DNA of 64,000 bases, taken from NCBI GenBank assembly GCA_047967505.1, contig CM106538.1, one strand, 5' to 3'. The DNA comes from Dipteris shenzhenensis (taxonomy: Eukaryota). Made by a program: the position numbers and the translations under genes. This document shows, piece after piece, positions 4,128-58,871 of this stretch. A model generated the notes under the pieces. That model was not told the origin of the DNA. It made no database searches and saw nothing but the letters and a program-made list of their open reading frames with translations. Position 1 is the stretch's first letter, and each line of letters opens with the position of its first letter.

Positions 4128-4184
4128 TTCTCCCACCAATAAATAAAGTATTAATTAAAAATTATAATAAATGAGTAGATTTTG

Positions 4185-7100: not shown

Positions 7101-7490
7101 GTTCGACCATCAGATGATGAATATGAGAATCTGAAGTTTTGGGTTGCAAAAGTAGTTGATGTGCAAAGAGATGACCAAGGGAGAGCTACAACATTTACAG
7201 CGGTATGGTATGAACCAAAGGGCAGGAAGGAGAATATGGATAACAACACATTGTATACTAATTGTATAATGAAGGAGTGGGTCCCAAATGATGAAGCGGT
7301 CTCACAAGTTTTGATGGAGACAATCATAGTGTCGGCATTCAAGGGCAAAGAAATCAAAGAAGCGCATGGGATATGAGGTAGAAGGAAAAATAAAAATACC
7401 ACAGCAAAGTATTTTGCATATACACAAATTTTTAAGGATGCTCGCCATGGAGGAAGAAGAAGGAGACAGTGCAAATGAAGAATGTCCATG
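4185..7490 (+). pseudogene. Sola-like DDD/E transposase pseudogene, copy 1
   Basis: ORF fragments 4298-7376 contain IVDGMDQ, QADNCWRENKN and GHTHEDIDQVFS. Several stops and internal deletions (near 4180, 5980, 6745) relative to copy 3. Confidence 0.85.
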
Positions 7491-7609
7491 ATTAAAGCTT
7501 TGTATTGAAGTCCATTGATGGAGTTTATTTGGGTACTAGGCAAGAAGCCAATTGACAATTATAATCAGAGTCATCACCTCCTATGTCAAATGAGAGTCAA
7601 AATATGCAC

Positions 7610-7835
7610 TGGATGTCACCCAAGGGTCAAGGCTTGGCAAGACAATAGGGAGTTAATGCAGATGGCACCTGGCAAGGGACTGTCACATTGAGCAATAAGA
7701 CAATGGGGAGTCAATGCACCCAAGGGGCAAGGCTTTTGGCAAGACAAGTGGGAGTTAATGCAGATGGCACCTGGCAAGGGACTATCGTGACATTGAGCAA
7801 TAAGACAATGGGGAGTCAAATTATGCAGATGGCAC
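7610..7835 (+). repeat. Subterminal tandem repeat of copy 1
   Basis: GGGAGTTAATGCAGATGGCACCTGGCAAGGGAC...CATTGAGCAATAAGACAATGGGGAGTCAA is duplicated; expanded further in copy 3 at 62460-62875. Confidence 0.85.
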
Positions 7836-8421
7836 GAATTGAGGCTCTTTAAGAGCAACAATTTAAATTGTAAACATTTGTTCAATCTATATCATTTTAT
7901 ACAAAGACTCCAGCTGAGAGCAACGTCTCTCAATGTAAACATATAATGATAGCTATAATTGCTATTTAATTCTTTGGTTCAATACAAAACTTGGGCCTTA
8001 TGGCATCATGTCTTTTTTCTATTTATTAAAAGTTTTAAAAATTTTGTGTATATTGCGAGTGACAATGTTATTTACATGAAATATTTAAGTCTCCTTTCAT
8101 GGATTTATAAATTTATCACGTCAAGGAAAAATATTGAAAATAGTTAGATTAACAAATAAATTAGGTATAGCTAGAATTTCTAAAATAGGATTATTTCAAA
8201 TTCTTGCATGTTGGTGCAAAAGTATAGTTTGAAAAAACAAGATTTTTATGTGAATATGATAGTGCCACAAAGTGAACTTTTGATTTGGGAAGAATATTTT
8301 CAGAAAGTAAAATTTTGATTTGGGAAGGATATTTTCACAAAGTAAACTTTTCAGTTGGGAAGGATTTTTGGGCTTCATCCAAAAACAACAGAAAAAGTCA
8401 AAAATTAATGAAATAGGTGTT

Positions 8422-8607
8422 GTAAAGTAATATTCGAATCAACGTGCCTACGAGAGAGAAGCCTACCTGATCTTGTGCCTACATTACCGTCTCGAGCTCG
8501 TTGATGTAGAGGCCAAACAAGATAGGTGATAATGGGCACCCTTGTTTGACCCCAATAGTGCTCATGATCTCATTTGTCCATCCAAATCTCGTCTGTCCGG
8601 ACTCCGC

Positions 8608-8610
<3 letters not shown>
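8422..8610 (-). pseudogene. Non-LTR (LINE) reverse transcriptase fragment
   Basis: Minus frame reads GVKQGCPLSPILFGLYINELETVM*AQDQVGFSLVGTLIRILLY, i.e. the QG..LSP.LF motif running up to the Tyr of the expected YADD. Confidence 0.85.
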
Positions 8611-8701
<91 letters not shown>

Positions 8702-16480: not shown

Positions 16481-17633
16481 TTTGACCACAACCCTCTTTC
16501 AACTACATCTAGATGCTTTTAAAGAATTTCAATTTTCTTGTTAGATAAAGAAGACTAGATCTAGTAAGAGAGAGGGTGAGAGGGTTCACTAGAGTGTTGC
16601 ATGATAGAGCTAGCATAAGAACTTTTGTTCTAAGCTCCAAATTGAGTTTTGATTATTCCAAGACAATGCAAGACATGTAAGGGATGGATTATTATGGGAT
16701 TCTAGAGAGAGAGCATCAAAACTCATATAATGAACCCAACACTCTTTCATGCTTGTGTTCAACTCACTTTTTGTGTACTTGTGCACTCTCACTCAAGTCA
16801 TTCTATGCCTTGCACTCTCAACTATGTACTAAGTTCATGCTCTTGTTTGCAACCCCTACTCCTAAACCATTTAGTCCTCCTACTCCTACTCTCACTCTTT
16901 CTCCTTTGTACAATTGCAATCACCCATAGTCTCCTTAACCTAATAATCATCCTACTCCTACTAGACTTAATCTTCTCGTTTTGTGCAACTGCAATCACCC
17001 ATGTCCCTTTACACAATCCCTCCTCTTTTCCCATAGTCCCTCCCATAGTCTGTCCCTCTTCTCATTGTCTCTACCTACTTGCTAATTTCTTTCCCTCTTC
17101 TCCCATGTTCTCCTACTACTATTCCACTCCACAATAATATTTCTCAGCTTTAAACTCCTTTTAAACCTAAAATTCTCTTTGATCCCTTACATTCAAAACT
17201 TAGATCTACTCTCACCCTTTTCTCCAATCCCAAATTCATGTTATAAACCTTGAATCCCTATTGATCTAATCTTTTCAATATCAAACTCCTAGATTTTATG
17301 TCTTGAACAAACTCCCCTCTTGATGGAAAAGGAGATGTAATCTTGATTATTTCCCTTCTGTCAACCCAACTATTTTCAATGTTTAAAATTTATTGGGCCC
17401 CAAAATCTCCTTTTAATCCTTACCATGGTGGAGACAAGTTTCTTCTAACCTATCTTAATTCCTTACTTCATTACCCTTTCCTCTTCTCCCTATGTTGTTG
17501 TGCAAATATATATGCTATCCTAGAATAGCACACTGCCATTCGATATCTTGGAAGAGAATAAGGGAAAAAAATTTGGTACTATTTTTCAGAATGAATAATG
17601 CCAATGGAAATGAGAAGTTTGCAAGTGATGAAA

Positions 17634-17659
17634 AACACTTATTTCATTAATTTTGGACT
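17634..17659 (+). repeat. Left terminal inverted repeat
   Basis: Reverse complement of 36143-36168; preceded by TSD GAAA. A second ACTTTTGGACTA motif lies just inside both ends. Confidence 0.9.
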
Positions 17660-17819
17660 TGTCAATGTACAAATTCATTTTTACATATACTTTTGGACTA
17701 GTTTTCAGATAAAATTTAAGAAAAACCCAATCTTCAAAGCACATATAAAATCATAAAAACAAGCATTTTTTAATATATTTTTTAAGGACATGAAATTAAA
17801 ATTTTAAAATTTAACGCAG

Positions 17820-18150
17820 CTTAGATAAGTTACATGAAAAAATAAGATTCAGTAGTTGTAAACTCTCTTAATATGTAATGGTGTTAATAAACACCTTCAA
17901 AAGTTACAGTATTAAAGAAACTCTCACCATATTTATAATAGAATTTGACAAACACCAAAAGTTACAATAAGCCTGAGATAAGTTACACAAAAAAGAGTGG
18001 TTTACAAAAAAAAGAGTGGTTCAGTAATTGTAAACTCTCTTAATATTTATAATAGTGTTTAGGAAACACTTTCAAAAGTTACAAGTGGAAGTAGCAAACT
18101 CTCACAATATTTATAAAGGTGTTGAAAAACACCAAAAGTTACAATAAGAC
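17820..18150. repeat. Subterminal ~155-bp direct duplication
   Basis: AGATAAGTTACA...GTAAACTCTCTTAATAT...AAACACCAAAAGTTACAATAAG occurs twice. Confidence 0.7.
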
Positions 18151-18319
18151 TCTCATTGGAAGGCAAATCTATTTTCAAGACTACATCCTAAATTCAACCC
18201 ATTCAAGAGCTGAGCTCATCTCATCCTCATCAATGTAGTTAAAATTATAGAAGAGAAAGATTGATGAATTTTCTATTTTCAAGCCTTTAGCCTAAATTCA
18301 ACCCATTCAAGAGCTGAGC

Positions 18320-18724
18320 TCATCTCATCCGAGTCTCATCCTCATCGATGTAGTTAAAATTATAGAAGAGAAGTAAGGATTGATGAATTTTCTCCTGCAT
18401 AACACTTTGTTTATTCTGAACGGCTTGCAGTTCCTGGGGTGGAAATCTTCCATAACGAGCCACATGTGAAGATATCTCACTTTGAAAGTCTATCAGCTCT
18501 CTCCTATATGACTGCAATTTATCTATTTTAGTAGTAGCCATACTTATTTTTCTTTTCTCTTCCTTCTCTTAGCCCTTCTGACAAGCAAAGTCATCCTTCT
18601 CGTACTAGGTTAATGGAGCTGGATTTTGCTTTCTCTCCTCTCTCTTTCCTTGGTTCTCGGCAATCCATACTTTGATGCTGCTAATGGCTTGCTCGACAGA
18701 ATCGATTACCTTAAAAAGATCCAT
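18320..18724 (-). pseudogene. Small helical protein A of unknown function (transposon-borne)
   Basis: MDLFKVIDSVEQAISSIKVWIAENQ...APLT*YEK...HVARYGRF...FNYIDEDE in one frame with two internal stops; aligns with 19824-20276. Confidence 0.7.
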
Positions 18725-18737
18725 AAAAATGAGAGGA

Positions 18738-19100
18738 GGAAGGTAATGAGAGTGAGGAAGGTAACTAGAGGAGGTAAGGCAAGATGAAAGGAGTATGCTT
18801 GAGAAGAGGAGGTAAGGCTGCGGGCAAGATGGAAGGAGCAAGCTTGAGGAGCGGAGTAAGGTAAGAAGAGCAAAGTGGAAGAAGTGTTTGCTGCGGGTGA
18901 GATATAGAAGACAAACAAGAGGAGGAAGGTAACGAGAGTGAGGAAGGTAACTAGAGGAGGTAAGGCAAGATGAACGGAGTATGCTTGAGAAGAGGAGGTA
19001 AGGCTACGGGCAAGATGGAAGGAGCAAGCTTGAGGAGAGGAGTAAGGTAAGAAGAGCAAAGTGGAAGAAGTGTTTGCTACGGGTGAGATATAGAAGACGA
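18738..19100. repeat. ~180-bp purine-rich direct duplication
   Basis: GAGGAGGAAGGTAA...GGTGAGATATAGAAGAC occurs twice. Confidence 0.85.
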
Positions 19101-19823
19101 ATGACTACTAGGGGATTTATAGAACTACAGACTCATAATGTGGGATGAAAGATTTAGAATAAAGAATTGGTAGAGGTTGAGATGACTAGATTATCTAAAG
19201 TAACAAATGCTGCAAGACCGTAATGTGAGACATGTGAGACATGTAAGATAGTGAGTACATTGAAATCTATAAAATAAAATGATGGGATGCAAGACCGTAA
19301 TGCGAGACATTTGAGACATGTAAGACAGTGATCAGTACATTGAAATCTATAAAATAAAATGATGGAACACAAGAATGATATAATTATTAGAATCTCATCA
19401 CGAGATATTTTTTTAATATAATATAAGATAGACTTCTTGATGCAAGACCGTAATGCGAGACATGTGAGATGATAGATTTTGAGTACATTGAAATCTATAA
19501 AATAAAGTGATGGAACATAAGAATGATATAATTATTAGATTCTCATCATAAGATATTTATTGTATATAATAAATTAGATTTTCAAAAAAGTAAAACCAAT
19601 TTAATAAATTTAGAGAGGTGAGTTGTTCATTGAGTGAAGTAAAAAATAAAAGACCATAAATGTGAGAGACACATGAGATGATAGATTTTGAATCGGTTTA
19701 AATCTATGAAATAAAGTCATTGAAGACAATAATAATATAATTAGACTCCCTTCTTTCGTCCATCCTAGTCCTTCTACAAGCACATTCTTCGTTTATCACT
19801 CTTAATTTATCACTCCACCCACC

Positions 19824-20276
19824 ATGGATGTCCTTGGCATCGTCGTAGATGTGGAGTCTGGAATCGACAGTCTCAAACAATGGGTTGCTGACCAAGGAGC
19901 AAGGAGAGATGCAAGAATTCGACAAGGCTCTCCACTCACACGGATGGAGAGAGAGGAATTCGATGCACAGAGGCGGATAGAGAGGGAGGAGACTCAGAAG
20001 ATAGCAGAGAGCAAAAGATTTTTACAATGTATTATAAAAGCATGACAAGATGTCTTGGACTTCTTAAGCAACCTACGTTATCGAAGCACTCGGTATGGTC
20101 GATTTGATCGGGATGCTGAAAGAACAATAAAGGCCTCCCAAAGAGATTATAAAGAAACAATCTGTGGCTGTTTGAATTTCTTCCTTCATTGTAATTATGT
20201 TGACGATACGGAAGTGGAGTCCGTGGAAGATTGGATTGCTGAGAAGATAAGAGATACTAATGATGAGATCTTCTAG
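19824..20276 (+). pseudogene. Small helical protein B of unknown function, paralog of A
   Basis: 150-codon frame MDVLGIVVDVESGIDSLKQWVADQ...SPLT...RYGRF...CNYVDDTE with one internal TGA at 20043-20045. Confidence 0.75.
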
Positions 20277-20660
20277 TGTGATCTCGGCCTCTGTGGCCTG
20301 TCCAGTGACTATTTGAATTTCTTCCTTCATTGTAATTATGTTGACGATACGGAAGTGGAGTCCATGGAAGATTGGATTGTTGAGAAGATAAGAGATACTA
20401 ATGATGAGATCTTCTAGTGTGATCTCGGCCTCTGTGGCCTGTCCATCATGATTGCTTGAATTTCTTTCTTCATTGTAATTATGTTGAGGATATGGATGTG
20501 GAGTCTGCGGCCTGTCCATCATGATTGCTTGAATTTCTTCCTTCCTTGTAATTATGTTGAGGATATGGACGTGGAGTCTGTGGAAGATTGGATTGTTGAG
20601 AAGATAAGAGATACTAATTATGAGATCTTCTAGTGTGATCTTGGCCTCTATGGCTTGTAA
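20170..20660 (+). repeat. Tandem duplications of the 3' end of gene B
   Basis: TGAATTTCTTCCTTCATTGTAATTATGTTGA...GAGATCTTCTAGTGTGATC is repeated 3-4 times, partly truncated. Confidence 0.85.
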
Positions 20661-20906
20661 TAGTTTTGTATTCTCTGCAACAAGTCTGGTAGGGCTGAGT
20701 AGATCATATTAGAATTGCTAATACAATTTATTTTTTTAGAATTGCTAATACAATAATAATACAAATTGAATAAATATCATAAGTAAATAAACTAATGTAT
20801 TGTAACATTTGTATTGTAACATTTAACATAAGTTTTAAAAACACTATCATTAGTCAATACAAACAAGATAAAAATCTTCAAGGACTCATGTTTCTTTCTA
20901 CATGTT

Positions 20907-23900
20907 TTACAACTGAATAGAGTCTGATGAGTCCTCTTGAGGCTATGATTCTCTAAGAGTACATTGAGTCTCTATTTCTTGTGTGGATGGTGTACATTGA
21001 GATTCTACTTCTGGTGCAATCGGGATAGACTTAATCTCTTCCTCCTTTGCAAGATGTGATGTTGTAGATGCACATTGAGTCTCTACTTCTTGTGTAGGAA
21101 GAATGCATTGAGTCTCTAATTCAAGTGGAGACTGTAATGCTTCTACTTGAGGCTGTGATGCAGAAGGAGACTAAATTGTCTCTTGTTTTTCTTTGGCTCC
21201 CTCATGTTCTTCATTGAGTCCATCATGTTGTTTTGCAATGGTAGCAGTTAGGTAGTGAACAGTCTTAGCCATAAAATCTTGTAGCTCGAGCTTTGTATAT
21301 GCTTCTATTGAGACATGTTCAAAAATTTCATTGAGGAACAACATGAACTTGTAGGAAATTCTCCACCCACTACTAAACTTGTCTTTCTGCTCCACTGCGA
21401 GGCGTGTTTGGAAATTTGGTTGGTCTTGATGCTCCTTGATTTTCATAATCGCAGAAACTAACTTATTTGTAGACCTGTCCATCATGACATATGACAAAGT
21501 GAATTTGTGTAGTAAATAGTAAGATGTATGTTCATAATGATATGACAAAAGAACACTTACTTGAACACCCCGTGAAAGCGTGTAAATGAATTGACAAACC
21601 AACAATGGTTGTCATCAAGATCCCATACTATCAGGCTCCAATGTGAGCTACATCACCAATAAAGAGCGATAAGATTTATCACAATATTAAGTATTAATTG
21701 ACACAATATTACAAATAAAAGAGTAAAAGAAAGATTGAGATGATACTTACTTCTCATAATATGGCATAAAGATAACTAGCATGCCATCCAAGTCTAAAGG
21801 TTGTAGCATTGAACAAACATCATCTACTGTCTTCTTGGTATCACTAAGTATAGCTGAAAGGAGAGAATCGAGCATACACACGCGATTCTGTACTGATCTA
21901 GGAAAGTGAGATATAACCGTACTGTAGCAATAAATAAACAAATGTTAGAAGCAGATTGAATCAAATGATTGAAGTATCAAGCCAAGAGATGTTCATATCA
22001 AACCTGAGGATGGCCATCATGACTTTGTCATTAGCCTCTTTCAAAGGGTCAGAGAGGATTGTAACTTCCTTGCTACCAAAACACGAGGTTGCTTGCTAAT
22101 GATAACCCTAACCTCAAAAGACCACCACGTTATCAATAAATGCCTTAACGATAGATGACATAAATGCATATAGATGCAAGTATGTATATGTCGACAATGA
22201 GGTTTCACCACCACTCAAATTAAAAATTTGAGCAAGGAGCAAAAAGTAGTTATATCCGACTCTCCACCCACAACTGTGATCATCATGTTACATACTCTAT
22301 TTGATCTTCTAAGTCACCTTCCATTTGCATAAGTGCATCTATAGCACCTACCAACTTTCGAGCCGATCTATACATCAAAATAGAAAACATAAATGAATGT
22401 GCACATTGTATAGGATGCATCTCATTGACGTAATTATGACACAAGTAGGTTATACTTAGTCTGACACATTGCCATGGATAGATGCTATTGAATTGACAAA
22501 GAAACATTGCTTGGCTAAGATGTCCACAATTACCAAGATCCAATGCAAGCTGCTTTATCAATTAAGAATAATTATTATTTGATATAATCCTCCACAATGT
22601 AAGAGATAAGCTAGGTAGGGATTGATACTCACTCCTCGTGATATGCAGTAAAGATAACTCGTGCCGCAGTCAAATCAACAGGTTGCAACCACTTAAAAAC
22701 ATCATCTATGTTCTTCTGCTTATTGCTAAGTACACTAGAAACAAGAGGATCGACCATATATGCACATCTCTGTATATATAGGGAAAGCTGTTCTAAAACC
22801 ATACTGCAATAAAAGGAAAAGAATATTAGCTCATTTGATCCAATGGAAATACAAAAGCATAAAGTCAATAAAAAGTTTATGTCAAACCTAAGGATGGTTA
22901 TTATGACCTTGTCATTAACCTCTTTCTTGAAGTTTATAAGGATTGACGAATAGAAAAGTAAGAGGTTGTTCTCGAACTTGAAGCCTAACTTGAAATGACT
23001 TCTCCATTTGCTGCAAGATATGATTATTTTCTAGAGTCATCAGATGGATAGCCAGAGCAGCTTTGCTTTCTTGAGATGAGCTTTCTATATTCTCTACTCC
23101 AGCTATGTCCTCCTCATCCTCCTCCTTTACCTTCTCCTATAAAAGGATAAAATAATTATGAGATTCAAAATTTTAAATTAATTATAAATTTAAAAATACC
23201 TTTAAATGAATAAAGAAAATTAAACATAAGTTTTCATACCTCTACATATATTCGTGGTCTTTTTATGTAACCTTCTGAGGCAAGATCAGTGTCATATCCA
23301 TCTTCTTCAGCTTCCTTACTATCGCTGGTGTCCTCACTATCATATCCAGAGCTTTCAACATTTTCAACATCTTTCTTGCTCTCATCATACATGACCATCT
23401 CTATGTCAGCATCCTCTTCATGTGAGATCAGACCTTTCTTATCATACTTTGTTGTGAGAGAAGCCACGGTATCAAGGTATTCTAAGCAAGCAGGGCTCTC
23501 AATAATATTTACATGGTGTCCTTTTCTAATAAGAGCTTCAAACAAATGTCCGATGCGACACAATGTGACTTCCCATCCGGATGGCAGCAAAAATTCCATC
23601 ATACTAATTAAAAGATCAGCACTTTTTGCTAGCCTTTCATAGTGATTTACATTGTGATGGAGGGGACTTGGAGCTTCATGCTCTTCTAGCAGTAGTTGCA
23701 ATCTCTTTGCATTCCCTCTTATGTTGTTCTATAAGGAGTGATCATTGTAAGGGCTCTTCATGCACAAGAAAAAGGTTTCAAGACTCTGTATCTTGAGACC
23801 GCATTCTCTCTTGTCCCTTTTTCTTGAGTATATACCATTGTAAATCTTAAGCTCATTGCCATATTGTTTTTCTAGGGTAGCAGACATTTTTTCCTTGTCA

Positions 23901-24995
23901 TCTTTATCAGCAAATATGACTATGTTACATAGTCTCACTCTACCAATGGTGGTATGTAATATTCTGTCAAGGAGTTGACGAATGTTATCCGGTGATATTT
24001 CATAGACAAAGAAAAGCTGAGGCCTCTCCCAAGCAGTGTCGTCGGACAAAAAATCATTCAATGAAACTCCCTTGCACTCAACACTCTTTCCAGACTCTGA
24101 AATGATTTCATGTATGAAAAAAAGCCCTTGTTCAAAGTTTTTTCTTTTCTGAGAGTGTGCGTATTGATGACTTTTTGTGCATATGCATACACATTTTCCG
24201 GATGTCCTATCTTATCTGATGCATGTCGTGTCTCACTCAATTCAATTTCTGTCTGAGATGCATGTGCATGTCCTGTATCATCTGATGCATGTCCTGTCTC
24301 CACCAAATTGAATTCCTGTCTCAGATGTAGATCCCTTTAAGCATCCACGTGTTCAAGACCCTCATCCAATTCTACAATGTGTTCTGTCTCATCCACTCCA
24401 ATTCCTCTCTCATTTGTATTACCATGAACCAGGTCTACATGGCGTGTCTCATCACTTCCTTTCTCATGTGTGGATTCTTGCACGTTAGGTCCCTCCAATG
24501 AAGTTGAACCTTGTTCAATGACACCGTGAAAGCATTCAAGGATAATCTTTGACTGCATTTTTCTTGCTTCCTCAATGGGAAATTCCTCCCACACATGTTG
24601 GAGGATCTCTAATGCAGAAACCAATTCAGGAAATCTAGGTGCTTTTGGCGGCGGCATCACAAAGTGCATTTCATCTTTCTTAGAAAGAAGAAACAATCTG
24701 TTGCTCATTCTTGACTTTGTGTAAATCATCATTGTACTGCTATCTTTTTCAATTTGTATTCCTAGTAAGGTGCCCCCTTGAATCAAATTGCTCTTTGAGA
24801 AAGATACATTTGATGCCCACTCATCTTTCTCCAACTCTCTCTTTGTCATCACTAGAATGAGATTTCCTTTACTTAATACCAAGAACCATGCTTTCTTTGT
24901 TGTGTCAACAACGGTCCAGTTTGTGAAGTCCTTTGGGGCATAAATTCTTCCATTGTATTTGAGTGTCATACCATTGACAAATGCTGTACCATCCT
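20907..24995 (-). pseudogene. Multi-exon accessory gene: unknown N-terminal region plus two tandem Ulp1/C48 (SUMO/ubiquitin-like protease)-like domains
   Basis: Reconstructed exons. Domain 1: EVNDKVI / MVDPL...VIFTAYHE / LHWILVIVD...FFVNS / DDHSCGWRV. Domain 2: EANDKVM / MLDSL...VIFMPYYE / SHWSLIVWD...WFVNS / QKDKFSSGWRI. Introns fall at equivalent positions in both domains; stops and frameshifts present. Confidence 0.72.
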
Positions 24996-25846
24996 ATATT
25001 AAAGCACAACACAAATTTTAGGTACTTTGACAAACTACAATTACTTTGATAAATCAAAAGTACAATGAGTCCCATTAATACACCTCAAGTTTTTATTCTT
25101 CCCAATCGTATAAGTGTCAATTTCATGCTTTGGGAATAGCCTAAAAGGCTTTACAAGGCTTAGACACATGCATAAATGTGAAAAAAAATAAGGATTTACA
25201 ATGATCTCCGAATACAAATTTGAAGTCTGTCAGATATAAGTGCAACATGCTCTGTCAACTCCCGCAACTGATATAAGTGTAAAATTCTCTGTCAACTCCC
25301 ACAACTAGTACAAATATAATCTGCTATGTCTAGTCCCTTAACTGATTCAACTGTAATCTATCATGTCCACTGATACAACTTTTAATCATCTTGAAAGTTT
25401 AAAAGCCTTGATCGTTGCTTAAATGGTAGGGTTGTTGTGAGTGTGAAACCGAATGTGAACGAATGGACTGACTCCGATTAGGAACTAGTTGGGAAATTTT
25501 GAGCATGCTTTGATTGGTTTTTTTGGAGTTCTCTCCTCTAAGGACAAACTAATCTATGCTAATCTAGACTACACCAACCGTCGAAGCGAAGAAAAGCAAG
25601 AAATAATTTATTTTCCATTGTTCTTTTTAATATCCTTAGGTTGCAAATTAAAAGCAAAAATAATCTATTTTCCATTATTCTTTTTAATACACTCAGGTTG
25701 TGAGTTTAAAAAAGATAAAATTTATATTTTCAAAAACTAATTTACTTACAACTCATAAGAATTGAACATTCACATAAATAAGAAGTTAAAATTTTAATAA
25801 ATTTAAATTTAAATAATAAAAACTACAAATTTAATTGGACTCCAAA

Positions 25847-26266
25847 TCCTAAACCCTAAACCCTAAACCCAAACCCTAAACCCTAAACCCAAATCCCCAA
25901 TCCCTAAACCCTAAACTCCCAAACCCTAAACCCTAACTCCCAAACCTTAAAACCCTAAAACCTAACCCCAAAACCTAAAACCCTAAACCCAAACCTCAAA
26001 ACCCTAAACCCTAAACCCTAAACCCTAAACCCAAACCCCCAAACCCTAAACCCTAACCCCCAAATCCTAAACCCTAATCCCTAAACCCTGAATCCCAAAA
26101 CCTAAACCCTAAACCCTAAACCCTAACCCCCAAATACTAACGCCCTAAACACTAACCCCAAACCCAAACCCTAAACCGTAAACCCCTAACCCCTAACCCC
26201 AAACCCTAAGCCCTAACTCCAAAACCCTAAACCCTCATCCCCAAACCTTAAATTCAAACTCCCAAA
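25847..26266 (-). repeat. Interstitial telomeric array (CCCTAAA)n, degenerate
   Basis: About 420 bp of CCCTAAA and variants. Confidence 0.95.
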
Positions 26267-26789
26267 CTCTTTTTTAATTCAAATTAATTTAATTTAATTC
26301 ACAATCATAAGAAGTTTAAACTTTGACAAAGTAAATTCTTATTAGTTTGAAATCACGAAATTTGAAATATAAATAAATTCAATTTAACTTAAAGTTTATG
26401 AAAAAATAACGTAAATTTAAGAAAATAAGACTTAAAATTTTAAAATCACAAAATTTAAAATATAAATAAATTCAATTTAACTTAAAGTTTATGAAAAAAT
26501 AACGTAAAATTAAGAAAATAAGACTTAAAATTACAATTTTAATATTTACCTAGAAGAATATATTAATTCTCCCTAAAAAGAAATAAATTAAAGTAATAAT
26601 AATGAATGTAAGTTAAACTACTTTTAAAATTTTAAAAAATGTAATAAAATTAAAATTATACTTTCTATATTCCAAAACAAAATGCATTTTTGTAAACTAT
26701 ATTTCAAAAAATTTAATTGAGAAATTAAACTAGTAAATTGAAAATGGAAGTGAAACTAATTTTAAATTTAAAAACAAAGGAAAATTTAA

Positions 26790-27010
26790 AATTCAAGTTT
26801 CCACAAGTTTTCCTTTTCGCACATGTTTGTCTTTTCACACTTTTCAAGTTTCCACACGTTTGTCTTTTCAAACACAAGGTTGTCTTTTATCACAATTTTC
26901 AAGTTTCCACATGTTTATCTTTTCAAACACAAGGATTCATAGTTTAAAAAAAGGTGAGAAATTTGAAATTCAAGTTTCCACACGTTTGTCTTTACAAACA
27001 CCAAGGTTTA
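26790..27010. repeat. Short repeated motif TTCAAGTTTCCACA(C/T)GTTT
   Basis: Four or more copies just upstream of the CT tract. Confidence 0.7.
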
Positions 27011-27229
27011 TAGTTTTGTTTGTTTAAGTTTCGACTAAATCACACACCAATCTCCTCTAATATGCCTCATTGATCGTAGCTCCCAAATTCTTCCATCAAA
27101 ACATCTCTCCTTTATCTCTCCTTGATCGTCGCCCACTCATTTCTCCTCCTCATCGGTAAGATTTTCTATCTCTGATCGTACTTTCTCTTGCACCCTCCCT
27201 CTCTAAATTTTCATCTCTTGTCCATCTCT

Positions 27230-27445
27230 TGTCAATCTCTCTCATCTCCTCTCTTCTTCTTCTCTCTCTCTCATGCTAGTACGCTTCTCTCTTCTTCTTA
27301 TCTCTCTCTCTCTCACTCTAGTATGCTTCTCTCTCTCTAGTCTCTCATCTCCCTCTCTTTTTCTCTTCTCTCTCACTCTCTTTCTTCTCCCCTCTGGTCT
27401 ACGTTTCCTCTCATCTTTATTTACTCTCTCCCCTCCTCTTCATTT

Positions 27446-27508
<63 letters not shown>

Positions 27509-29430
27509 CACTCTCTCCTCTCTTTTTCTCTCTCTCTCTCTCACTTGCGCACTGCGCGTCTCTTCTTCTCTCTCGCTCTCCTACTCTCTCCCACTCTCTC
27601 CCACTCTATCTTTCTCTACTTTCTCTCCCACTCCCCTCTCTCTCTTTCTCTCTCATGCTGCCATGGTAGCGCGTCCCTCTCTTTCCCTCCCACTCTCTCT
27701 CGCTCTCCTACTCTTTCTCTCCTCTCTCTCCCACTTCCTCTCTCTCCCACTCCCTCTCTCGCGGTGCCCATGCCCCTCTCTCTCCCTCCCACTCTCTCTC
27801 TCTCTCGCTCTCCTCTCTCTCCCACTCCTCCCACTCTCTCTCTCTCTCGCGCCCCTCTCTCCCTCCCTCTCTCTCCCTCCCCACTCTTTCCCTCCCCCCC
27901 CTTGCGCTGCGCCTCCCCCCCTCTCTCTCTCCCCACTCTCTCTCTCCCCCCCCTCTCTCGTGTGCTACCGTGGTAGTGCGCCCCTCTCTCCCTCCCCCTC
28001 TCTCTCTCCCCCCTCCCGCTGTGCCTCCCCCCCTCTCTCTCTCTCTCCCCACTCTCTCTCTCCCCCCCTCTCTCTCTCACGCACTGCTGTGAGAGAGAGA
28101 GGGGGGAGAGAGAGAGGGGGGGAGGCCGCTGCCGCGAGACAGAGGGGGGGGAGAGAGAGAGTGAGGGGCGCGCTGTCATGGCAGCGCACGAGAGAGAGAG
28201 GGGGGGAGAGAGAGAGGGGGGGGAGGCCGTTGCCACGAGAGAGAGGTGAGAGAGAGTGAGGGGTGCACTGCCCCCCCCCTCCCCTCTCTCTCCCCCCCTC
28301 TCTCTCTCTCGTGCTACTGTGGCAGCGTGCCCCACTCTCTCTCTCCCCCCTCTCTCTCGTGACAGTGGCCTCCCCCCTCTCTCTCTCTCCCCACACTCTC
28401 TCTCCCCCCCTCTCTCTCTCTCACGCTGCCGCGGTAGTGTGCCCTTCACTCTCTCTCTCCCCCCTCTCTCTCGCGGTAGCGGCCTCCCCCCCTCTCTCTC
28501 TCCCCACTCTCTCTCTCCCCCCTCTCTCTCTCACATGCTGCCGCGGTAGCGGCAGCGTGCCCCTCTCTCCCTCTCCCTCTCTCTCCCCCCCTCGTGCTGC
28601 GCCTCCCCCCCTCTCTCTCTCGTGCGTTGCCGCCGTAGCGTGCCCCTCTCTCCCCCCCTCTCTCCCTTCCCACTCTCTCTCTCCCCCCTCGTGCTATGCC
28701 TCCCCCCCCCTCTCTCTCTCCCCACTCTCTCTCTCCCTCCCCTCTCTCTCTCGCGTGTTGCCATGGCAGCGCACCCCACTCTCTCCCTCCCTCTCTCTCC
28801 CCCCCTCTCTCTCTCTCTCCATCCCGTTGGGCCTCCCCCCCTCTCTCTCTCTCCCCCTCTCTCTCTCGCGGTCTCTCTCTCTCCCTCTCGGCACTCCTTT
28901 CTCTCTCTCTCTCTCCCTTCTTTTCTCTCTCTCTCTCTCTCTCTCTCTCCCTCTCGGTACTCCTTTCTCTCTCTCTCCCCCTCCCTCTCTCGCGCTCTCT
29001 CTCCTTTCCCTCTCTCCCTTTCTCTCTCTCACCTCTCTCTCCCTCTCATCTCTCCCATCTCCCGCAGCCCTCTATCACTCTCTCTCCCTCTATCTCTCTC
29101 ACATCTCTCTCCTCTCGTGTGGTCTCTCTCTCTCTCTCTGTCTCACGAATCTCTCCCTCCCTCCCTCTCTCTCTCCTCTCACGGCCCCCCTCTCTCTCTC
29201 TCCTCTCGCGCGGCCCTCCCCTCTCTCTCTCTCTTTTACCTCTCACCCTCTCTATCTCTAAACGTCTCTCCTCTCTCTTTCTCTCTCTCTCTAAAAGTCT
29301 CTCCTCTCTCTCCCTCTCTCTTTCTCCCTCTCTCTCTCTTTTGTTGCCGAGGCAGCAAGACTCTCTCTCTTATAATCTCTCTCTAAAAGTCTTTCCTTCA
29401 CATTTCTCTCTCTCTAAGTTCTCTCTCTAT
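27230..29430. repeat. CT/GA-rich micro/minisatellite with an internal inverted segment
   Basis: Near-pure pyrimidine plus strand with short GC-rich spacers; 28090-28260 is the same unit in reverse orientation. Confidence 0.95.
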
Positions 29431-29669
29431 AATAAAATTTCAAAGAATACAAATTAAAAAAAAAGTACTTGGAAAAAAGTTGAGATCTATGCTTGTGCTT
29501 GCTTTTGCTCTTCCTCCTCTTTTTGCTTCTCCTCTTGCTCTTCCTTGTTGAAATGAGAGAAACAATGAGAGAAGGAGAGTATATATAAGAAAAACCAGGG
29601 TTTTAAGTGCTTCTCTCTCATTGGTCCTTCTATATCATTATCTCCTCTCCCATTGGCCTCTCCATTAGA

Positions 29670-30575
29670 TTATCTTCTCTCCCTCTCCCACCCACTCCCA
29701 TCCTCCCACCCCATTCCCACTCCCACCCCCATCCTCCCACCCCACCTCCCCCATTCCCACTCCCTCTCCCACTCCCACACCCATGCCCATTCTTCCACCT
29801 TCCCCATTCCCACTCCCTCTGCCACTCCCATCCTCCCACCCCACCCCTCCCACTCCCACTCCCATTCTCCCACCCTCACCCCACCCCCATCTCCCCCATT
29901 CCCACTCCCTCTCCCACTCCCACTCCCATTCTCCCACGCACTCCCATCCTCCCACTTCCACCTCTCACTCCCACTCCCATCCTCCCACCCCCACCCCTCC
30001 CCCCCCCATTCCCACTCCCACTCCTATTCTCCCACCCCTTTCCTCCCACCTCACCCCTCCCACTCCCATCCTCCCACTCCCTCTCCCACTCCCACGCCCA
30101 ATTTACCACCCCCACCTCCCCCATTCCCACTCCCTCTCCCATCCTCCCACCCAACCCCTCCCACTTCCACCCCCACCTCCCCCATTCCCACTCCCTCTCC
30201 CACTCCCATCCTCCCACCCCACCCCTCCCACTCCCACCCCCACCTCCCCCATTCCTACTCCCTCTCCCACTCCTATCCTCCCACTCCCCACCCCTCCCAA
30301 TCCCACTCCCATCCTCCCACCCTCACCCCACCCCTACCTCCACCATTCCCACTCCCTCTCCCACTCCCACTCCCACTCCCATTCTCCCACCCCGACCCCC
30401 ACCTCCCCCATTCCCACTCCCTCTCCCACTCCCACTCCCACTCCCATCCTCCCACCCCCACCCCCACCCCCACCGCCCCCATTCCCACTCCCTCTCCCAC
30501 TCTCCCTTTCTCCCACTCTCCCTTTCTCCCACTACCACCCTCCCAACTCCCACTCCCATTCCCACATTCCTATTA
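29670..30575. repeat. (CCCACT/CCCATT)-type C-rich minisatellite
   Basis: About 900 bp with almost no G on the plus strand; the minus strand reads as GGGAGT-like repeats. Confidence 0.95.
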
Positions 30576-30647
30576 TCAATTCCACTACTACTTATGAATT
30601 CTAATTAAAACTATTACTTAAATAAATGATATTACTGAAAACACTCA

Positions 30648-31575
30648 TAGGATTTAAGGTTTAGGATTTGGTGGTTTGGGTTTAGGGTTTGGGGTTTGAT
30701 GAGCTAGGGTTTAGGGTTTGTGAGTTAGGAATTAGGCTTTGTGAGTTAGGGTTAGGGTTTAGGGTTTGTGAGTTAGGGTTTAGGGTTTGGTGGTTTGGAT
30801 TTAGGGTTTGAGGGGTAGGGTTTAGGGTTTAGGGTTTAAGGTTTGGGAGTTAGGGTTTAGGGTTCAGGGTTTGAGGGTTAGGGTTTAAGGGTTAGGGTTT
30901 AGGGTTTGGTTGTTTGGGTTTAGGGTTTAGGGGGTAGGGTTTAGGGTTTAGGGTTTGGGGGTTAGGGTTTAGGATTTAGGGTTTAGGGTTTAGGGTTTGA
31001 GGGGTTAGGGTCTAGGGTTTAGGGTTTGGGGGTTAGGGTTTAGGGTTTAGGGTTTGGGAGTTAGGGTTTAGGGTTTGGGTGTTAGGGTTCAGGGTTTAGG
31101 GTTTGGGAGTTAGGGTTTAGGGTTTGGGAGTTAAGATTTAGGGTTTTTATTGGTTAGGGTTGAGGGTTTAAAGAGTCAAGATTAACATTTATTGTTTAGG
31201 GATTAGGGATTATGAGTTAGGGTTTAGGGATTAGAGTTTACGAGTTTAGGTTTAGGTATTAGGGTTTAGGGTTTAAGGGTTAGGGTTTAGGAATTAGAGT
31301 TTTAGGATTAGGATTTTGGGATTAGGGATTAGGGGTTAGGGTTTACAGATTAGGATTTAGGGGTTTAGGATTTAGATTTAGGAATTAGGGTTAAGGATTT
31401 AGGGCTTAGGGTTTAAGGGTTTAGGAATTAGGGATTAGTGTATAGAATTTAGGGTTTAGAAATTACGGGTTAGGGTTTAGGGTTTAGGAATTAGGGTTTA
31501 TGGTTTCAAGGGTCAAATTAGGGTTTAGGGTTTGGGGGTTAGGGTTTAGGGTTTAGGGTTTAGGGTTTAGGGTTT
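30648..31575 (+). repeat. Interstitial telomeric array (TTTAGGG)n, degenerate
   Basis: About 930 bp of TTTAGGG and variants, with near-perfect units at the right end. Confidence 0.95.
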
Positions 31576-31667
31576 GATTAAATTTTTAAACAAGATCTAG
31601 ATTTTTAAATCATTAATAAAGTAGATTATTGAGAAGAGACTAATGTTCTTTATAATGGTTGTTACAG

Positions 31668-34600
31668 CTTGTTTGCAAAGGAAACTCACAAAGGAGATGG
31701 CTACAAAATTTATTCTGGGGATGGACGTGATTCTATGTTGCAAAAGAGAAGTAGTTGCATTTGCTACAATCCATGAAAGTGATCCAAATTCTATTTATCA
31801 CTTTAGAAGACTTGGCAAAGATAAGGTGGCGGTTATCGTATCAAGGATTCTTAGTGCACATGTTGAGCTAAAGCATAAGTGTGGGGATATGGACATCCTT
31901 GGAGATGTTATGCCCTATAATACTTCCAACAAAGCATTTATTGCATGGGACAGAGATGAGGCTTATCCAACACATGTCATCAGGAATACAAAGTGCATAT
32001 CTTTGGATTTTAGAGTGGGAGATATTTTACAAATGTTATCATTTGCAAATAACAATGTAGCAGAAGGTCAAGTCTTAGGATTTGAACAAGTGGAACACTG
32101 GACATTTGTGCAGACGAGAATTCAAAAAGTTACTGATGATGGTATGGATGATAACTCAATGTCATTGGATGGTCCCTACTATGAGGTAGGTAAGGATTTG
32201 AGATGGAGCATGCAATTTTTAAAGATTGGAAAGACTCGGCATGTGGTTTTTAATGATAAACATAACTACAACATCAAAGAATTGAAAGAATATGCCAATG
32301 TACCAAGCTCTATTCCTTCAGAGATGGATGATTCCAATGCACTCAACTATAGCACTGACGTCTTATCAGAAGTCGATGAGTTCATTGGTACCGAGAAAGA
32401 AAAATATTTCACAAGTGATGCCTTATCCGGGGTGGGTGGATGAGTTCATGCACATTGAGAACTTGGGCAAAGATGTCAAAAGTGATATATTTTCAAGCAT
32501 GGATGGCTTCATGGATACTAATAAAGTTCTTGGAGTCAAACCAAGTAACTATGGAAATCATGCACGATAGTATAATGAGTGATGTTCTCTCTGGAGTAGA
32601 GGAGTTTCAAGACTATGGAGTTATGAAATCCATAGAAAGTGCATCAATGAGTGACGTTCTCTCAGGAATAGATGAGTTTGAAGATCATTCTGGACACTCT
32701 ATCACCACTGACTATGGAGTTATGAAATCCATAGAAAGTGCATCAATGAGTGATGTTCTCTCAGAAATAGATGAGTTTGAAGATCATTCAGGACACTCTA
32801 ATGCCATTGTGACAAGTGGTTCTACGATTGTATCAAAAGTAGGGATGAGATCAACAAAGGACTATTCAGTATTTGACTTTGATTGTGAAATAGTTAATGT
32901 TACAAATGGTTTGACGAATGTATCAAAAGCAAGGATGACATCAACAAAGGAATATTTAGTATTTGACTATCAGAGTGATAAGATCAAGGATGCAACATCT
33001 CATGAAAACAATGTGACAAATAAATCTTACAAGGAGAACTACACAAATCCAAATAAGAATGTACAGAAGGTCCCAAAACGGACATACAAATGCATGAAAA
33101 GACAACGAGTCTAGGCAGATCCAGAAAAGCAACCAAAGAGAATAAGAGTAATGAATGAAGATGTTATGCTAAAAGCAATGCGATCTACATGCTGTAAGCA
33201 TACATGTATGCGATCCATTAACTTACATGACATCAAGGGTTGTAGAGAACATGTCTGGCAAAGGAAAGGAAGTAGAAGAAATGAATACCTACTCATGAGA
33301 TTGTCTTGCTTTCTTGTAAATGATAAGAGAAGGCGAAGTTCAGGACAGCAGATAAGGCCTTTTATAAATGGAAAAAGTATTTGCAATAATACATATCGCA
33401 TTATTACACGATTATCACATGGCACATATTGGAATTTGGCTAATAAAGCAAATTATGGAGTTAAATTTAACATTCATGGAAACATAGGAAGGCCCAAAAC
33501 AAGAGCCTCAACGGTTGTGGCAATAGCAATTTTGAAAGATTACATTTATGAAAATGCTTTACCGCAACCCCACCTATCAGAAATTCATCTTCTGATAGGT
33601 TTGACCAAAAAAGAAGTATTTAACTCTATTGGAGAAACACAGAGGCAAAGAGGGCATGCACCGGCATCTTTTCATACTTTGTATACTCTTTGGAAAAAAA
33701 GCTTTGGACATGTTAAAATCCCAAAGAGGCAAAAAATGTCAAAGTGCAACGACTGTGATGATCTAAAGTGAGCACTTGAGAGTGCAACATCTCTAGAACA
33801 AAAAGAAGCTTACAAAAAAAAGAGAGAATTTCATTATGGACTTGTTTGACATTCTAGAATAAAATATGCATTTTGGAAGGAGCAAGCTATTTCTCACCCA
33901 AATGAGTACATGTGCATTATTGTAGATGGTATGGATCAAAATACAACAACATTACCTCGATTCGTTAACACTCCACCTAAGCTACAAGGCAAATACTTTT
34001 TAAAGACACATCTATGTGGAGTGTTAGTGCACAGATTTAAGTTTTTTGCAGACATATGGATTGATTCCTTGCATCTACATGATAGCAATCAAGTGTAACA
34101 TCCGTTATGAAGGTAATTCACAATGTACATGCAGAAAAAGGTCACCTACCAGCAACTTTGAGAGTACAAGCAGACAATTGCGGACGAGAGAATAAGAATG
34201 TACTCTTCTTTGCATTTTGCTCAATGCTAATCGCTCATAGAATCTTCAATGATATTGAAGTTGGGTTTTTGTTGGTTGGGCACACACATGAGGATATCGA
34301 TCAGGTATTTAGCACAGTTTCAGGAGAACTAAAACACAAGGACATGGAGACGATGGATGACTTGATAAAAAAATGTGGGAGGAAAGTTGGTGGCCATAAG
34401 GAAGGAACAATATGCTCAATGGTTGAGAGGATGTATGATTGGAAGAGCTTTATTCTACCTTTCATACAAAAAGGTGGTGATGCCCTGATAGGTCATAGCG
34501 CTCCACACTATTTTTGCTTTTTCTTAAAGGATGAAAAACCAGTGATGCAATGGCAACACTATTCTCTTGATACAAAATGGGAACCTGAAGAACCTTACTC

Positions 34601-35393
34601 TCTCTTAACTTCAATCCCGAGCAAAGAAATGCATCCAACATGGGCTCCTATAAAAGAATTCAGCGAGAAATCCAAAGGTGAAATAGAAGGCTTAAAAGCT
34701 TTTATTACATACAAAGAGGAAATGCTCTGGAGATTTCCTGATTGGAAGCCCTCTTGGAAGGAACACACTATTGTTGTAATTAGCAAGACCCACCAATTGA
34801 TAAAGGACCTTGCAAAAATACGAGAAGATGATATTAAGATAGAACGGCCTTTATTTTGGCCAAATGTTGGTAATGACTTGCGTCCAGCATGTGGTCTCTT
34901 TGAAAATGAGTTTGAATCGTTGCTCCCACGTCCATATTGTGGACCCAAGAAGGGAGAGTTTATGCCACAAATAGACATAGATGTCCATTGTTTTGTTGCA
35001 GTTCGACCATCGGATGATGAACATGAGAACGTGAAGTTTTGGGTTGCGAAAGTAGTTGACGTGAGCATGGATGACCAGGGGAGAGCTACAACATTTACAT
35101 CGGTATGGTATGAGCCAAGGGGTAGGAAGGAGAACCAAGATAACAGTACATTGTATAGTAGTTGTCTGAAAAAGGAATGGGTCCCAAACCATGATGCAAT
35201 TTCAAGACTTTCCACAGAGACAATCATAGTATCCTGGAAATCAAGGTCAAAGAAAACAAAGAAGCACATGGGGTATGATGTAGAAGACAAAATAAAATTA
35301 CCGCAACCAATTATTACGCACATTATAGAGTTCATAAAGATGCTCACCCAGGAGGAAGTAGAAGGAGATAGCGCAAATGAAGAATGCCCATGA
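31668..35393 (+). pseudogene. Sola-like DDD/E transposase pseudogene, copy 2 (~1,200 aa if repaired)
   Basis: ORFs 31643-35393 join via a few stops and frameshifts. Motifs CCKHTC, KCNDC, IVDGMDQ, QADNCGRENKN, GHTHEDIDQVFS, C-terminal FWVAKV...WYEP. Confidence 0.85.
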
Positions 35394-36142
35394 TAACACC
35401 ATTCAAATATCGAGCAAGAGTGAAGGTGGTGGTGGTAGTCAGATGAGAGTGAATGAAGATGGCACCCAAGCGACAAGTGATGATAGAAAGGACATTCTGA
35501 ACAAGCAAATGTTTGGATCGCTCATTTCTATGATCATGATAGAAAAGGACATTCAAACAAGCAAATGTTTGGATCGCCCATTTGTACTAAACTCATTGTA
35601 AAGGAAAAATTAAATTATTGAAAAGGCCACAAGAGATCCTTTGTACAAAGACTCATCCAGAGCAATATTTGTTGTAAAACTTATGACATGATAATGTAAA
35701 ATTGCAAGCATAGCCATTGCTATTTTTTGGAGTACAAAAGAGGCTTCCATCATGTTTCATGTCTATATAAACCTTTTAATTTCTTGAATATTCAAGAGTG
35801 TTATAGTTTTCTGCATTGAAAGTAAAAAGAGTCTTACAGGTCTCTTATGTATACAATTTTAAAATGTTGTGAATCCTCAATAGCATGGTTTTTCATGGAT
35901 TTAAACTAATAACTCAGATTTTTTATTTTAAGAATATGATTCTTATAAACAAGAAATACAAATTTAGGATTTAATAGTAGTTTTTGCATTATTTGTACAA
36001 CATTGTAGAGAGATATTTTGAAATGTATTATGTGAAAATGATAGTGCCAGAAAGTAAACTTTTGATTCTTGAATGACAATTTCATAAAGTAAACTTTTCA
36101 TTTGGGAAGGATTTTAAGGAATAGTCCAAAAGTAGACATATG

Positions 36143-36168
36143 AGTCCAAAATTAATAAAATAAGTGTT
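36143..36168 (-). repeat. Right terminal inverted repeat
   Basis: Followed by TSD GAAA; nearly the same end at 8421 and 63443. Confidence 0.9.
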
Positions 36169-36279
36169 GAAAGTAATTTTCAAGAGAGCATTACTCTAGG
36201 GGAAGTTGTGTAATTAAAGAAAGTATCATAGCGCACTTAGGCATTATGCTTTGGAAGTGTCTACATGTAAAAATCTAGG

Positions 36280-36789: not shown

Positions 36790-38450
36790 TGTTAGCCTTA
36801 CCAATGACCTCGTGACAAAAGATGAAGAGGGGAGAGGAGAAGAGTGGAGATGAGGAGAGAGGGCACAGCTAGAGAGCACACCATAAATGACTAACTATAC
36901 ACTACATTTAGTTGCAAATGTAGAATATATACAAACCCTTTTAGGGTTAGGTTTAGGGCATCTAACACTTTCCTTTTTAGCACTCTATATGTGTTAGTGC
37001 TATGCACATATGATCATATGATGTTGAGCACGGTTTTTCAACACCTTCCCTCAAGATCAACATCATGAAGTAGGCCTTCCCTCTAGATGATGATTCTGAG
37101 GAATCGAAGAAGGACTGAGCATTACATTCCATCACACCCCCTTAATGGGTATGTCCTTCCTCTGCATCAAACCAAGAGCTTATCGGTGCTTCTCAAACAA
37201 CTCTTTACCTAGTGGTTTGGTAAAGATGTCTGCAACATTTTCTTTGCTATCACAATGCTGCAGTGTGATGTCACTTAAGTAACACTCTTTCTCTGATGAA
37301 GTACTCTCTGACATCAATGTGCTTTGTCTTGGAGTGATACTATATTCTTGGCCAATGCTTGACTCGATTGATTATCACAGTATATTGTTGTTGGCTTTGA
37401 TTCATCAAAGTAGTGTGTTTTTGACAATAGCCTTCAAGAACCTGTAGTGAGTGCTCTATATGTTGCTTCAGTGGAAGACATAGAAACAGTTGTCTATTTG
37501 ACAAGCATGATATAGCATCTTGATCAAGGAAAAATGCATATCTATGAGTCGATCTCGTGGTCTCATGATCTCTGGCATAGTCAGATCCATGCAACCTTAG
37601 ATGACTTTCTCTGTATTGTATTCCAAACTGTCTTGTATCTTTGATGTATCTTAAGACTCTTTTGGTTGCATTCCAGTGAGATAGCTTTGGATTTGACATA
37701 AACTGTGCAAGTGAACTTATTGCATAACAAATATATGACCGTGTGATAGTCAGATATATAAGAGATCCAATGAGTTGTCGATAGTACCTGTCATTGACAA
37801 TAAGCTTTTTTGAATCTTTTGTAAGTTTCAAACTCTGTTCGCGATCGATGATGGGAGTGGATGCAATCTTGCAATCTATCATATGAAACTTCTTTAGGAG
37901 ACTGTCAACATATTTCAGTTAATTCATAAAGGTGCTGTCTGAATCTCTTCAGAACTCAATTCCAAGACAATAGTGAATAAGTCCAAGATCTTTCATGTTG
38001 AACTCTGCAAATAATTCTTGTTTCAATTTCTTGATGAATCTATCCTTGCTTCCGGTCACAATCACAGATCATCTACGTACAAAAGTGCAATAGTAATGTC
38101 TTCCCCTTAAACTTTGTAGTAAAGAGTATGATCTGCATTGGATTTCATGTATCCTAGATTAGCAAAATACTTGTTGATTCTGTTATACCAAATTTTGGGT
38201 TCTTGCTTTAAGCCATAGAGGCCTTTTTTTGAGATGGCAAACTTGATTCTCTTTTCCTGCTTCAACATTACTTGCTGGTTGGTGCATGTAGACTTCCTCC
38301 TCGAGGTAACCATTGAGAAAAGCATTCTTGACATTGAGTTGGTATACATTCCATCTGCTGAGTGTCACTAGTGATATCAAGAACTGTATGGAATCCATCT
38401 TTGCTACTAGAGCATAAGTCTCATCATAGTCTTGACCATATTGCTACCAT
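36790..38450 (-). mobile_element. Ty1/Copia RT-RNase H relic with PPT and probable 3' LTR
   Basis: QLNVKNAFLNG.LEEEVYM.QP, LYGLKQ.P..WY, YRQLIGSLIYLTITR; PPT-like TTAAGGGGG before TG near 37135-37145 on the minus strand. Confidence 0.85.
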
Positions 38451-58500: not shown

Positions 58501-58776
58501 GACACTAAGGCAAAAACGGTGTTTTATGCTTGATCGACAATGCAAAGCATATCCGATGGGCACAATACTTTGCACACACCTTCAACTAGGTGGAATTGAC
58601 TTACATGCAAAGTGGCACACCCATCCCATAAGTGCTTGATTGGATACCATACCTAGCAGGCTCGTGTTTTTTTATGGATGTACATGACACTAGAGCAAAA
58701 ATAGTATTTAATGCTCGATCGACCATGCAAAGGATAACTTGGTATGTCCATCTGATGAGTACTTGATCGGATAACT
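49546..58776 (+). repeat. 182-bp satellite array (~50 monomers) with 546-bp higher-order repeat and an internal inversion
   Basis: Equivalent spurious ORFs recur 545-546 bp apart (51077/51623, 54064/54610, 56115/56660/57206); about 52585-53610 is reverse-complemented. Confidence 0.95.
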
Positions 58777-58871
58777 TCTGCCACCAATAAATTAAGTACT
58801 AACTCAATATTATTATAAATGAGTAGATTATTAAAAAGAGACTAATATTTATGTAATTGTTGCTACTGCAG

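Follow-up and report, generated by a model that had tools for sequence, protein, structure and literature searches.

A probable Sola-like transposon insertion of 18.5 kb with a DUF7869 transposase relic and a multicopy left arm in Dipteris shenzhenensis

Transposons of the Sola superfamily are described, in the available part of PMC10741241, as DDD elements that make 4-bp target-site duplications (TSDs), carry terminal inverted repeats (TIRs) of 11-1124 bp, measure 2-9 kb ('some can be over 15 Kb') and are present in Physcomitrella; the superfamily is also summarised in the accessible part of PMC4455052. Few TIR superfamilies have been reported from a moss, and Sola is among them (accessible portions of PMC10741241 and PMC9033089); AWWT is given as the hallmark target of Sola1 (accessible portion of PMC3845634). 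In a 64,000-nucleotide stretch of Dipteris shenzhenensis DNA (contig CM106538.1; hereafter referred to as the window), we analyzed an insertion of 18.5 kb at positions 17634-36168, both ends of which carry a TIR and a TSD. Judged from the sequence, the whole segment is probably a single decayed cut-and-paste TIR insertion, belonging to a clade with a DUF7869 transposase and best placed as Sola-like by described features. The element has in common with Sola, as far as the available descriptions go, the TIRs, the 4-bp TSD, a putative DDD/E-type transposase, the moss-like or plant setting and the size range, and it differs in that no Ulp1-like passenger gene and no telomere or satellite fill are described for Sola in the literature searched. 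It is an unusual member of a known family and not a new kind of element. Its large size is not new, because some published Sola elements already exceed 15 kb, and the size range quoted above contradicts an initial annotation of this locus, according to which the known Sola elements are much shorter.

The accuracy of the two ends is supported by several lines of evidence. The 26-nt TIRs (17634-17659, plus strand; 36143-36168, minus strand) match at 25 of 26 positions, the sole mismatch being C/T at position 12, and the match extends no further. GAAA stands on both sides (17630-17633 and 36169-36172, unstranded), so that the 26-bp TIRs and 4-bp TSD of the initial annotation stand; a 5-bp duplication does not fit. 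At the base composition of the window, two flanking 4-mers would agree by chance with P = 0.0046, while four instances of the terminal pattern with at most 3 mismatches are present in the window, compared with 0.00 expected from 100 shuffles. The right boundary is set independently of the TIR, since the homology among the three right arms present in the window stops exactly at this terminus, beyond which the flanks are unrelated. At the left boundary, a 285-nt contig from one public sequencing run (X2) matches from exactly 17634 and is preceded by 38 unmatched nt, and the 588 nt of left flank show zero depth in all four public runs. The sequence CTTTTGGACTA, which repeats the inner part of the TIR, is found at 17690-17700 (plus strand) and 36122-36132 (minus strand), 56 and 36 nt from the two element ends, respectively, and may represent a transposase-binding site. 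The exact sequence TTTTGGACT occurs five times in the window, four of them within 70 nt of the two ends of the focal element. From this anatomy and general DDE/D chemistry, a transposase of about 1,200 amino acids would bind the conserved terminus AACAC.TATTT.ATTAATTTTGGACT and the subterminal TTTTGGACT repeats, and would then excise the element and join it to a target cut with a 4-bp stagger, leaving GAAA on both sides. No paralogous empty site was found in the window or in the related loci described below. As a side observation, the first 15 nt or so past the right terminus are alike in the focal copy (36169-36186) and in another right-arm copy of the window (copy A, 8422-8440), reading G(T)AAAGTAAT.TTC; this resembles the subterminal AAAGTAAA.TTTT repeats of the element itself and may reflect target preference or chance.

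The transposase gene relic is located at 31697-35393 on the plus strand as a single exon of about 1,200 codons, starting with an ATG at 31697, about 120 nt downstream of the end of a telomere-like array at 31575. Its DUF7869 core includes the motifs DGMDQ, DNCGRENKN and GHTHEDIDQ, and two open reading frames (ORFs) of this region, 33850-34098 and 34086-35393, match Pfam DUF7869 (PF25273) with E 2.4e-41. The DUF7869 score is 141.9 bits for the focal copy and 175.7 bits (E 1e-51) for copy C, a third right arm in the window, both above the gathering cut-off of 26 bits. Comparison by tblastn with intact relatives gave one collinear gene without introns, which is damaged in the focal copy by two frameshifts and at least three in-frame stops. 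The focal copy is dead, and all three transposase copies in the window are broken. Among 22 aligned proteins, the acidic positions D46 and D49 (in DGMDQ), D129 (in DNC) and E168, D169 and D171 (in HEDID) are invariant or nearly so, and, on the basis of this alignment, the three conserved acidic motifs fit a putative DDE/D triad. These results agree with the initial description of a single TIR-bounded insertion with a DDE/D-type transposase, for which the Pfam check gave DUF7869 at the E-value above. The nearest proteins found are 29-43% identical and unnamed except for 'uncharacterized' proteins of Mytilus; the matches to the DUF7869 family are strong, yet identity to any protein found does not exceed 43%. 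A profile search of the PDB sequences with the transposase alignment gave no match. Pfam scans of the transposase ORFs and of all six left-arm frames detected no nuclease or helicase family, and the transposase ORFs matched no piggyBac or integrase family either. DUF7869 has no described function, and its name was not found in the literature searched.

A metagenome scan gave 492 relatives, from which 80 loci were kept, all distant and mostly 25-37% identical over the matched part; matches of relatives to DUF7869 had E 5e-55 to 6e-68. The terminus of the focal element also closes 17 distinct loci downstream of their transposase, and the consensus terminus of 21 ends, AACACATATTTAATTAATTTTGGACT, is identical to the left TIR of the focal copy at 24 of 26 positions. 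Relatives delimited at both ends include L011 (11,273 bp; TIR match 25/26; flanks ATAT and ATAT), L023 (4,642 bp; TIR match 26/28; flanks ATAT and TTAT), which is the same ancestral insertion as L011, and L054 (4,294 bp; TIR of 16 nt; no duplication). L011 is longer than its sister L023 by an extra 7.6 kb (L011:1776-9436), which holds a NIF (CTD-phosphatase-like) fragment on the minus strand (E 1.3e-14); the appearance of this extra segment suggests a captured piece of a host gene or a nested insertion. For 13 of the 17 distinct loci, no left-end candidate was found with up to 6 mismatches in 24 nt within a distance of up to 13 kb upstream. We also observed that most loci with a right end lack a left end within 2-13 kb upstream, among them L006, L018, L031, L034 and others with a well-conserved right terminus and no left one within 5-13 kb, and that some loci contain a pair of right-type ends pointing the same way (L031, 9246 and 12474; L034, 4081 and 12380). 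A scan of prokaryote genomes gave six weak loci (L081-L086), all in assemblies of metagenome-assembled genomes (MAGs). Five of them lie on short contigs of 1.5-6.4 kb, which are probably eukaryotic contaminant DNA binned by mistake; the sixth, L086, is on a 733-kb contig of a Nitrospirales MAG and matches 69 residues at 44%.

On the basis of these comparisons we propose three layers within the focal element. The right 4.5 kb would be the canonical part of the family, consisting of the transposase gene and the right end; the left 8.2 kb would be lineage-specific passenger DNA, itself multicopy, that travels with the left terminus; and the middle 5.7 kb would be a secondary fill of inverted, degenerate telomere-like arrays around low-complexity DNA. 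The middle part consists of a degenerate (AAACCCT)n array at 25844-26252 (58 copies, 76% matches), a core at 26253-30647 in which AT-rich tandem repeats give way to CT-rich low complexity ((CT)n and CTCCCA units), and a degenerate (TAGGGTT)n array at 30648-31575 (131 copies, 71% matches) that is inverted relative to the first, none of which was assigned a strand. The telomere-bracketed core noted initially was thus found as described. The CT-rich part of the core spans about 3.4 kb, and the GC content reaches 0.59 at 28-30 kb. Given their low level of matches (71-76%), the arrays are therefore old.

The left arm contains relics of several putative genes. Two small ORF relics, a (18320-18730, minus strand, in two blocks and without a Pfam family) and b (19806-20276, plus strand, inside 19598-20809), are paralogs, similar only at the protein level (30% over 56 amino acids, E 2e-9; 36% over 39 amino acids, E 8e-10); this protein similarity without DNA similarity therefore speaks for past coding constraint. 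Two tandem Ulp1-like units, unit 2 at 21302-22062 and unit 1 at 22218-22946, both on the minus strand, have in common four exon-like blocks (a-d) and are 69% identical over 385 nt, with a ratio of nonsynonymous to synonymous substitution rates (dN/dS) of 0.42 and with 40, 34 and 49 differences at the first, second and third codon positions, respectively, over 366 nt. Block b is followed by the donor sites GTGAGT and GTAAGT in the two units, and the third (His/Asp) block reads HW(I/S)L(V/I)V.D in both. In each unit this block matches only PF02902 (Peptidase_C48), at profile positions 94-120. The tandem units are a probable, unproven relic of an Ulp1/C48 protease gene. Upstream of them on the same strand is a long ORF relic at 23234-24993 with two stops, one frame change and no detectable relatives; its part at 24058-24993 gave no match when searched with HMMER against 1.84 billion representative proteins. 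The Ulp1-like frame scored none of 6,063 candidates in a word-index protein search, so that no left-arm gene has a detectable relative in the protein collections searched. Of the four gene relics claimed at first, the transposase, the tandem Ulp1-like paralogs and the two small paralogs are present; the Ulp1 label itself stands on matches below threshold.

Contigs from four public runs, including X1 and X2 from two studies, were aligned to 17000-25800 of the window. The element part was covered in 28 of 30 bins by X1 and in 27 of 30 bins by X2, and the contigs are 80-99% alike and include indel variants. Because diverged contigs cover the left arm, one of them starting exactly at 17634, the arm is multicopy family DNA that begins at the left terminus. 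The possibility, raised with the initial annotation, that it is a one-off nested insertion therefore does not hold, given such diverged copies in both studies. In contigs of three of the four runs, 1,212 nt at 19598-20809, the segment that holds paralog b, is replaced by 39 nt, and one contig carries 1,646 extra nt at 24202, the point at which the frames of the long ORF relic change. On account of the 39-nt replacement and the 1,646-nt extra segment, we conclude that the gene content of the left arm is not fixed and that the window copy is internally deleted. No RNA run is listed as containing the left arm.

Terminus search and self-comparison of the window identified two more right arms on the plus strand, copy A at 4176-8421 and copy C at 58822-63443, each with a 182-bp satellite upstream. 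Identity is 95-97% between A and C and about 79% between these two and the focal copy, and the transposase frames of A and C are broken too. Sequence shared by the three right arms sets in no more than about 100 nt before the ATG, immediately where the arrays end; farther upstream stand the telomere-like arrays in the focal copy and the 182-bp satellite arrays in A and C. A and C share the satellite junction yet have unrelated right flanks, and their origin as one segmental duplication was rejected, as the flanks past the terminus share nothing. No similarity to the left arm, either in DNA or in translation, was detected elsewhere in the window.

Several findings weigh against the reading of this locus as one such insertion with a protease-bearing arm. 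Only two insertions, L011 and the focal one, show a perfect 4-bp duplication. For the one-ended copies A and C, no left terminus was detected in the window even with 7 mismatches allowed in 26. Among the contigs compared over 17000-25800, no other copy was seen joining the left arm to the transposase arm. As to the protease, the PF02902 scores of unit 1 (17.3 bits, E 0.0044) and unit 2 (11.7 bits, E 0.24) are both under the cut-off of 20.7 bits, none of the four peptides of blocks a and d matches Pfam, and no catalytic Cys was recognised in the units, the d blocks being without a Pfam match. The six-frame Pfam scan of the left arm gave nothing at E 0.1 or better, nor did ten separate ORFs, and three per-frame PDB searches gave no C48 chain and only chance-level matches of E 0.39 or worse, with no protease among them.

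The Sola1 target AWWT fits only 2 of 20 presumptive targets (right-flank 4-mers) against 0.6 expected by chance (0.032 each), and the TSD of the focal copy is GAAA; the element, if Sola, is therefore not a typical Sola1. Sola2 and Sola3 reportedly have target preferences that differ from that of Sola1, as Bao et al. are said to have described in 2009, which speaks for keeping the element within Sola. The name Sola-like fits the 4-bp duplication and the acidic triad, and it was assigned from described features; on this footing, we consider membership in Sola somewhat favoured. For the initial placement, the 4-bp TSD and the TIRs were confirmed and three conserved acidic motifs are present; the AWWT preference of Sola1 is not seen. 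The most serious alternative, which we regard as possible though not probable, is that the transposase belongs to another superfamily, either AcademX or an as yet unnamed superfamily of DUF7869 proteins. Besides the descriptive nature of the placement and the rarity of AWWT (the hallmark given in the accessible portion of PMC3845634), this alternative draws on the 3-4-bp duplications made by the large AcademX elements (accessible text of PMC10045372) and on the fact that the named DUF7869 relatives are from Mytilus, bivalves harbouring many Academ elements according to the accessible portion of PMC10294476. The focal element indeed has in common with AcademX the large size and the 3-4-bp duplication, as far as the latter is described in that text. 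The two Academ lineages, however, encode a helicase and a nuclease (same part of PMC10045372), and no nuclease domain was found in the scanned frames, nor any nuclease or helicase family in the transposase ORFs or the left arm. In addition, as stated above, Sola belongs to the small number of TIR superfamilies with a moss record. Assignment to piggyBac was rejected. Transposons of this superfamily target TTAA, and this 4-mer is found at only 1 of 20 flanks. They have termini 5'-CC..GG-3' and a 4-bp duplication, the latter also being made by Ginger1 (accessible text of PMC10045372); here the termini are AACAC...GTGTT, the TSD is GAAA and no piggyBac family of Pfam was matched. If our reading of the element holds, DUF7869 would gain a role as the catalytic core of a clade of TIR transposons with a conserved 26-nt terminus and 4-bp duplications, and one more superfamily would be known to carry Ulp1-like passenger genes. 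No major open question is changed by these findings, and the copy itself is dead.

Ulp1-like protease genes have reportedly been found in plant MULE (Kaonashi/KI-MULE) and CACTA transposons, by Hoen et al. in 2006 and by others. The present element likewise carries a duplicated and decaying, putatively C48-like gene within a TIR transposon, beside or instead of the transposase; in contrast to those carriers, its transposase is of the DUF7869 type, its TSD is 4 bp and its C48 match stays below the Pfam threshold. TIR transposons of the Pack-MULE type capture fragments of host genes. Foreign DNA between a terminus and the transposase is likewise found in this clade, as in L011 with its NIF-phosphatase fragment; the passenger of the focal element differs from the Pack-MULE type in being 8 kb long, multicopy and without a detectable host relative, and in that the transposase gene is kept. 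The initial annotation had proposed a multi-gene, cargo-bearing lineage, whose conserved accessory system would travel as a unit and comprise the double Ulp1-like gene, the two small paralogs and the transposase. In favour of this proposal, diverged left-arm copies beginning at the TIR recur in runs from two studies; it is also supported by the 30-36% protein similarity kept by the small paralogs without DNA similarity, the dN/dS of 0.42 between the Ulp1-like units and the match of both units to Peptidase_C48 only. The multicopy state of the left arm thus stands. A fixed layout of four genes with an accessory system is nevertheless unlikely: paralog b is replaced in contigs of three of the four runs, copies A and C follow satellite, with no left-arm homology elsewhere in the window, and left-arm homologs were found in none of the 80 related loci. 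The relatives, moreover, include compact forms of 4.3-4.6 kb, the one long relative carries the unrelated NIF fragment instead, and both the largest ORF relic and the Ulp1-like frame are without relatives among the 1.84 billion proteins and the 6,063 candidates, respectively. That the segment combines two separate insertions 18.5 kb apart, one with the left terminus and its arm and the other with the transposase arm on the right, and was never mobile as one, is very improbable, because even though the middle 5.7 kb is foreign fill and right ends lacking a left partner are frequent both in the window (A and C) and among the relatives (13 of 17), GAAA is identical on both sides (chance probability as given above) and the two termini agree at 25 of 26 positions, from which copies A and C differ at 2-3 positions.

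The position of the arrays deserves attention. We offer, as a speculative and rather doubtful joint interpretation, that the site immediately 5' of the transposase gene serves long tandem arrays as a landing pad or seed, and that a DUF7869 (Sola-like) lineage acquired, and spread with its termini, an 8-kb arm encoding a duplicated Ulp1-type protease and small lineage-specific proteins. If this were true, satellites and interstitial telomere repeats would have in the transposon a vehicle or nucleation site, and the accessory arm would parallel the independent acquisition by MULE and CACTA in flowering plants. The presence of arrays at one spot in all three window copies is a small, testable lead on the association of satellites and interstitial telomeres with transposons in repeat-rich regions. 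As a trait of the whole clade, upstream arrays were rejected, telomere-like runs being present in 0 of the 80 related loci and any array of at least 600 nt in only 3 of them.

Candidate explanations for the core were examined. A palindrome extending beyond the telomere arrays was rejected, the only match being 9-10 nt, AT-rich and at chance level. A scaffolding gap at the core was also rejected, the window being free of N; a misassembly may nonetheless be present. The two arrays are oriented like two ends of a linear chromosome, with the C-rich strand first and the G-rich strand last, around 4.4 kb of low complexity.

Rfam and tRNA scans of the window gave 0 and 0 matches. Outside the element, a 192-residue ORF at 37340-37918 (minus strand) resembles by eye the C-terminal part of a Copia-type polyprotein, without a Pfam family at E 0.01, and six ORFs of the flanking regions gave no Pfam match. 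The 182-bp satellite forms arrays at 1-4127 and 49546-58739, with higher-order periods of about 364 and 546 nt; each array ends 50-170 nt before a right-arm copy, and about 1 kb of the second, at 52584-53609, is inverted. Within the core, a CTCCCA-like hexamer is repeated about 140 times at 29679-30565 and long (CT)n tracts lie at 27236-29339, and a (GA)n-type tract similar to these tracts is present in the flank of copy A near 8610-8700.

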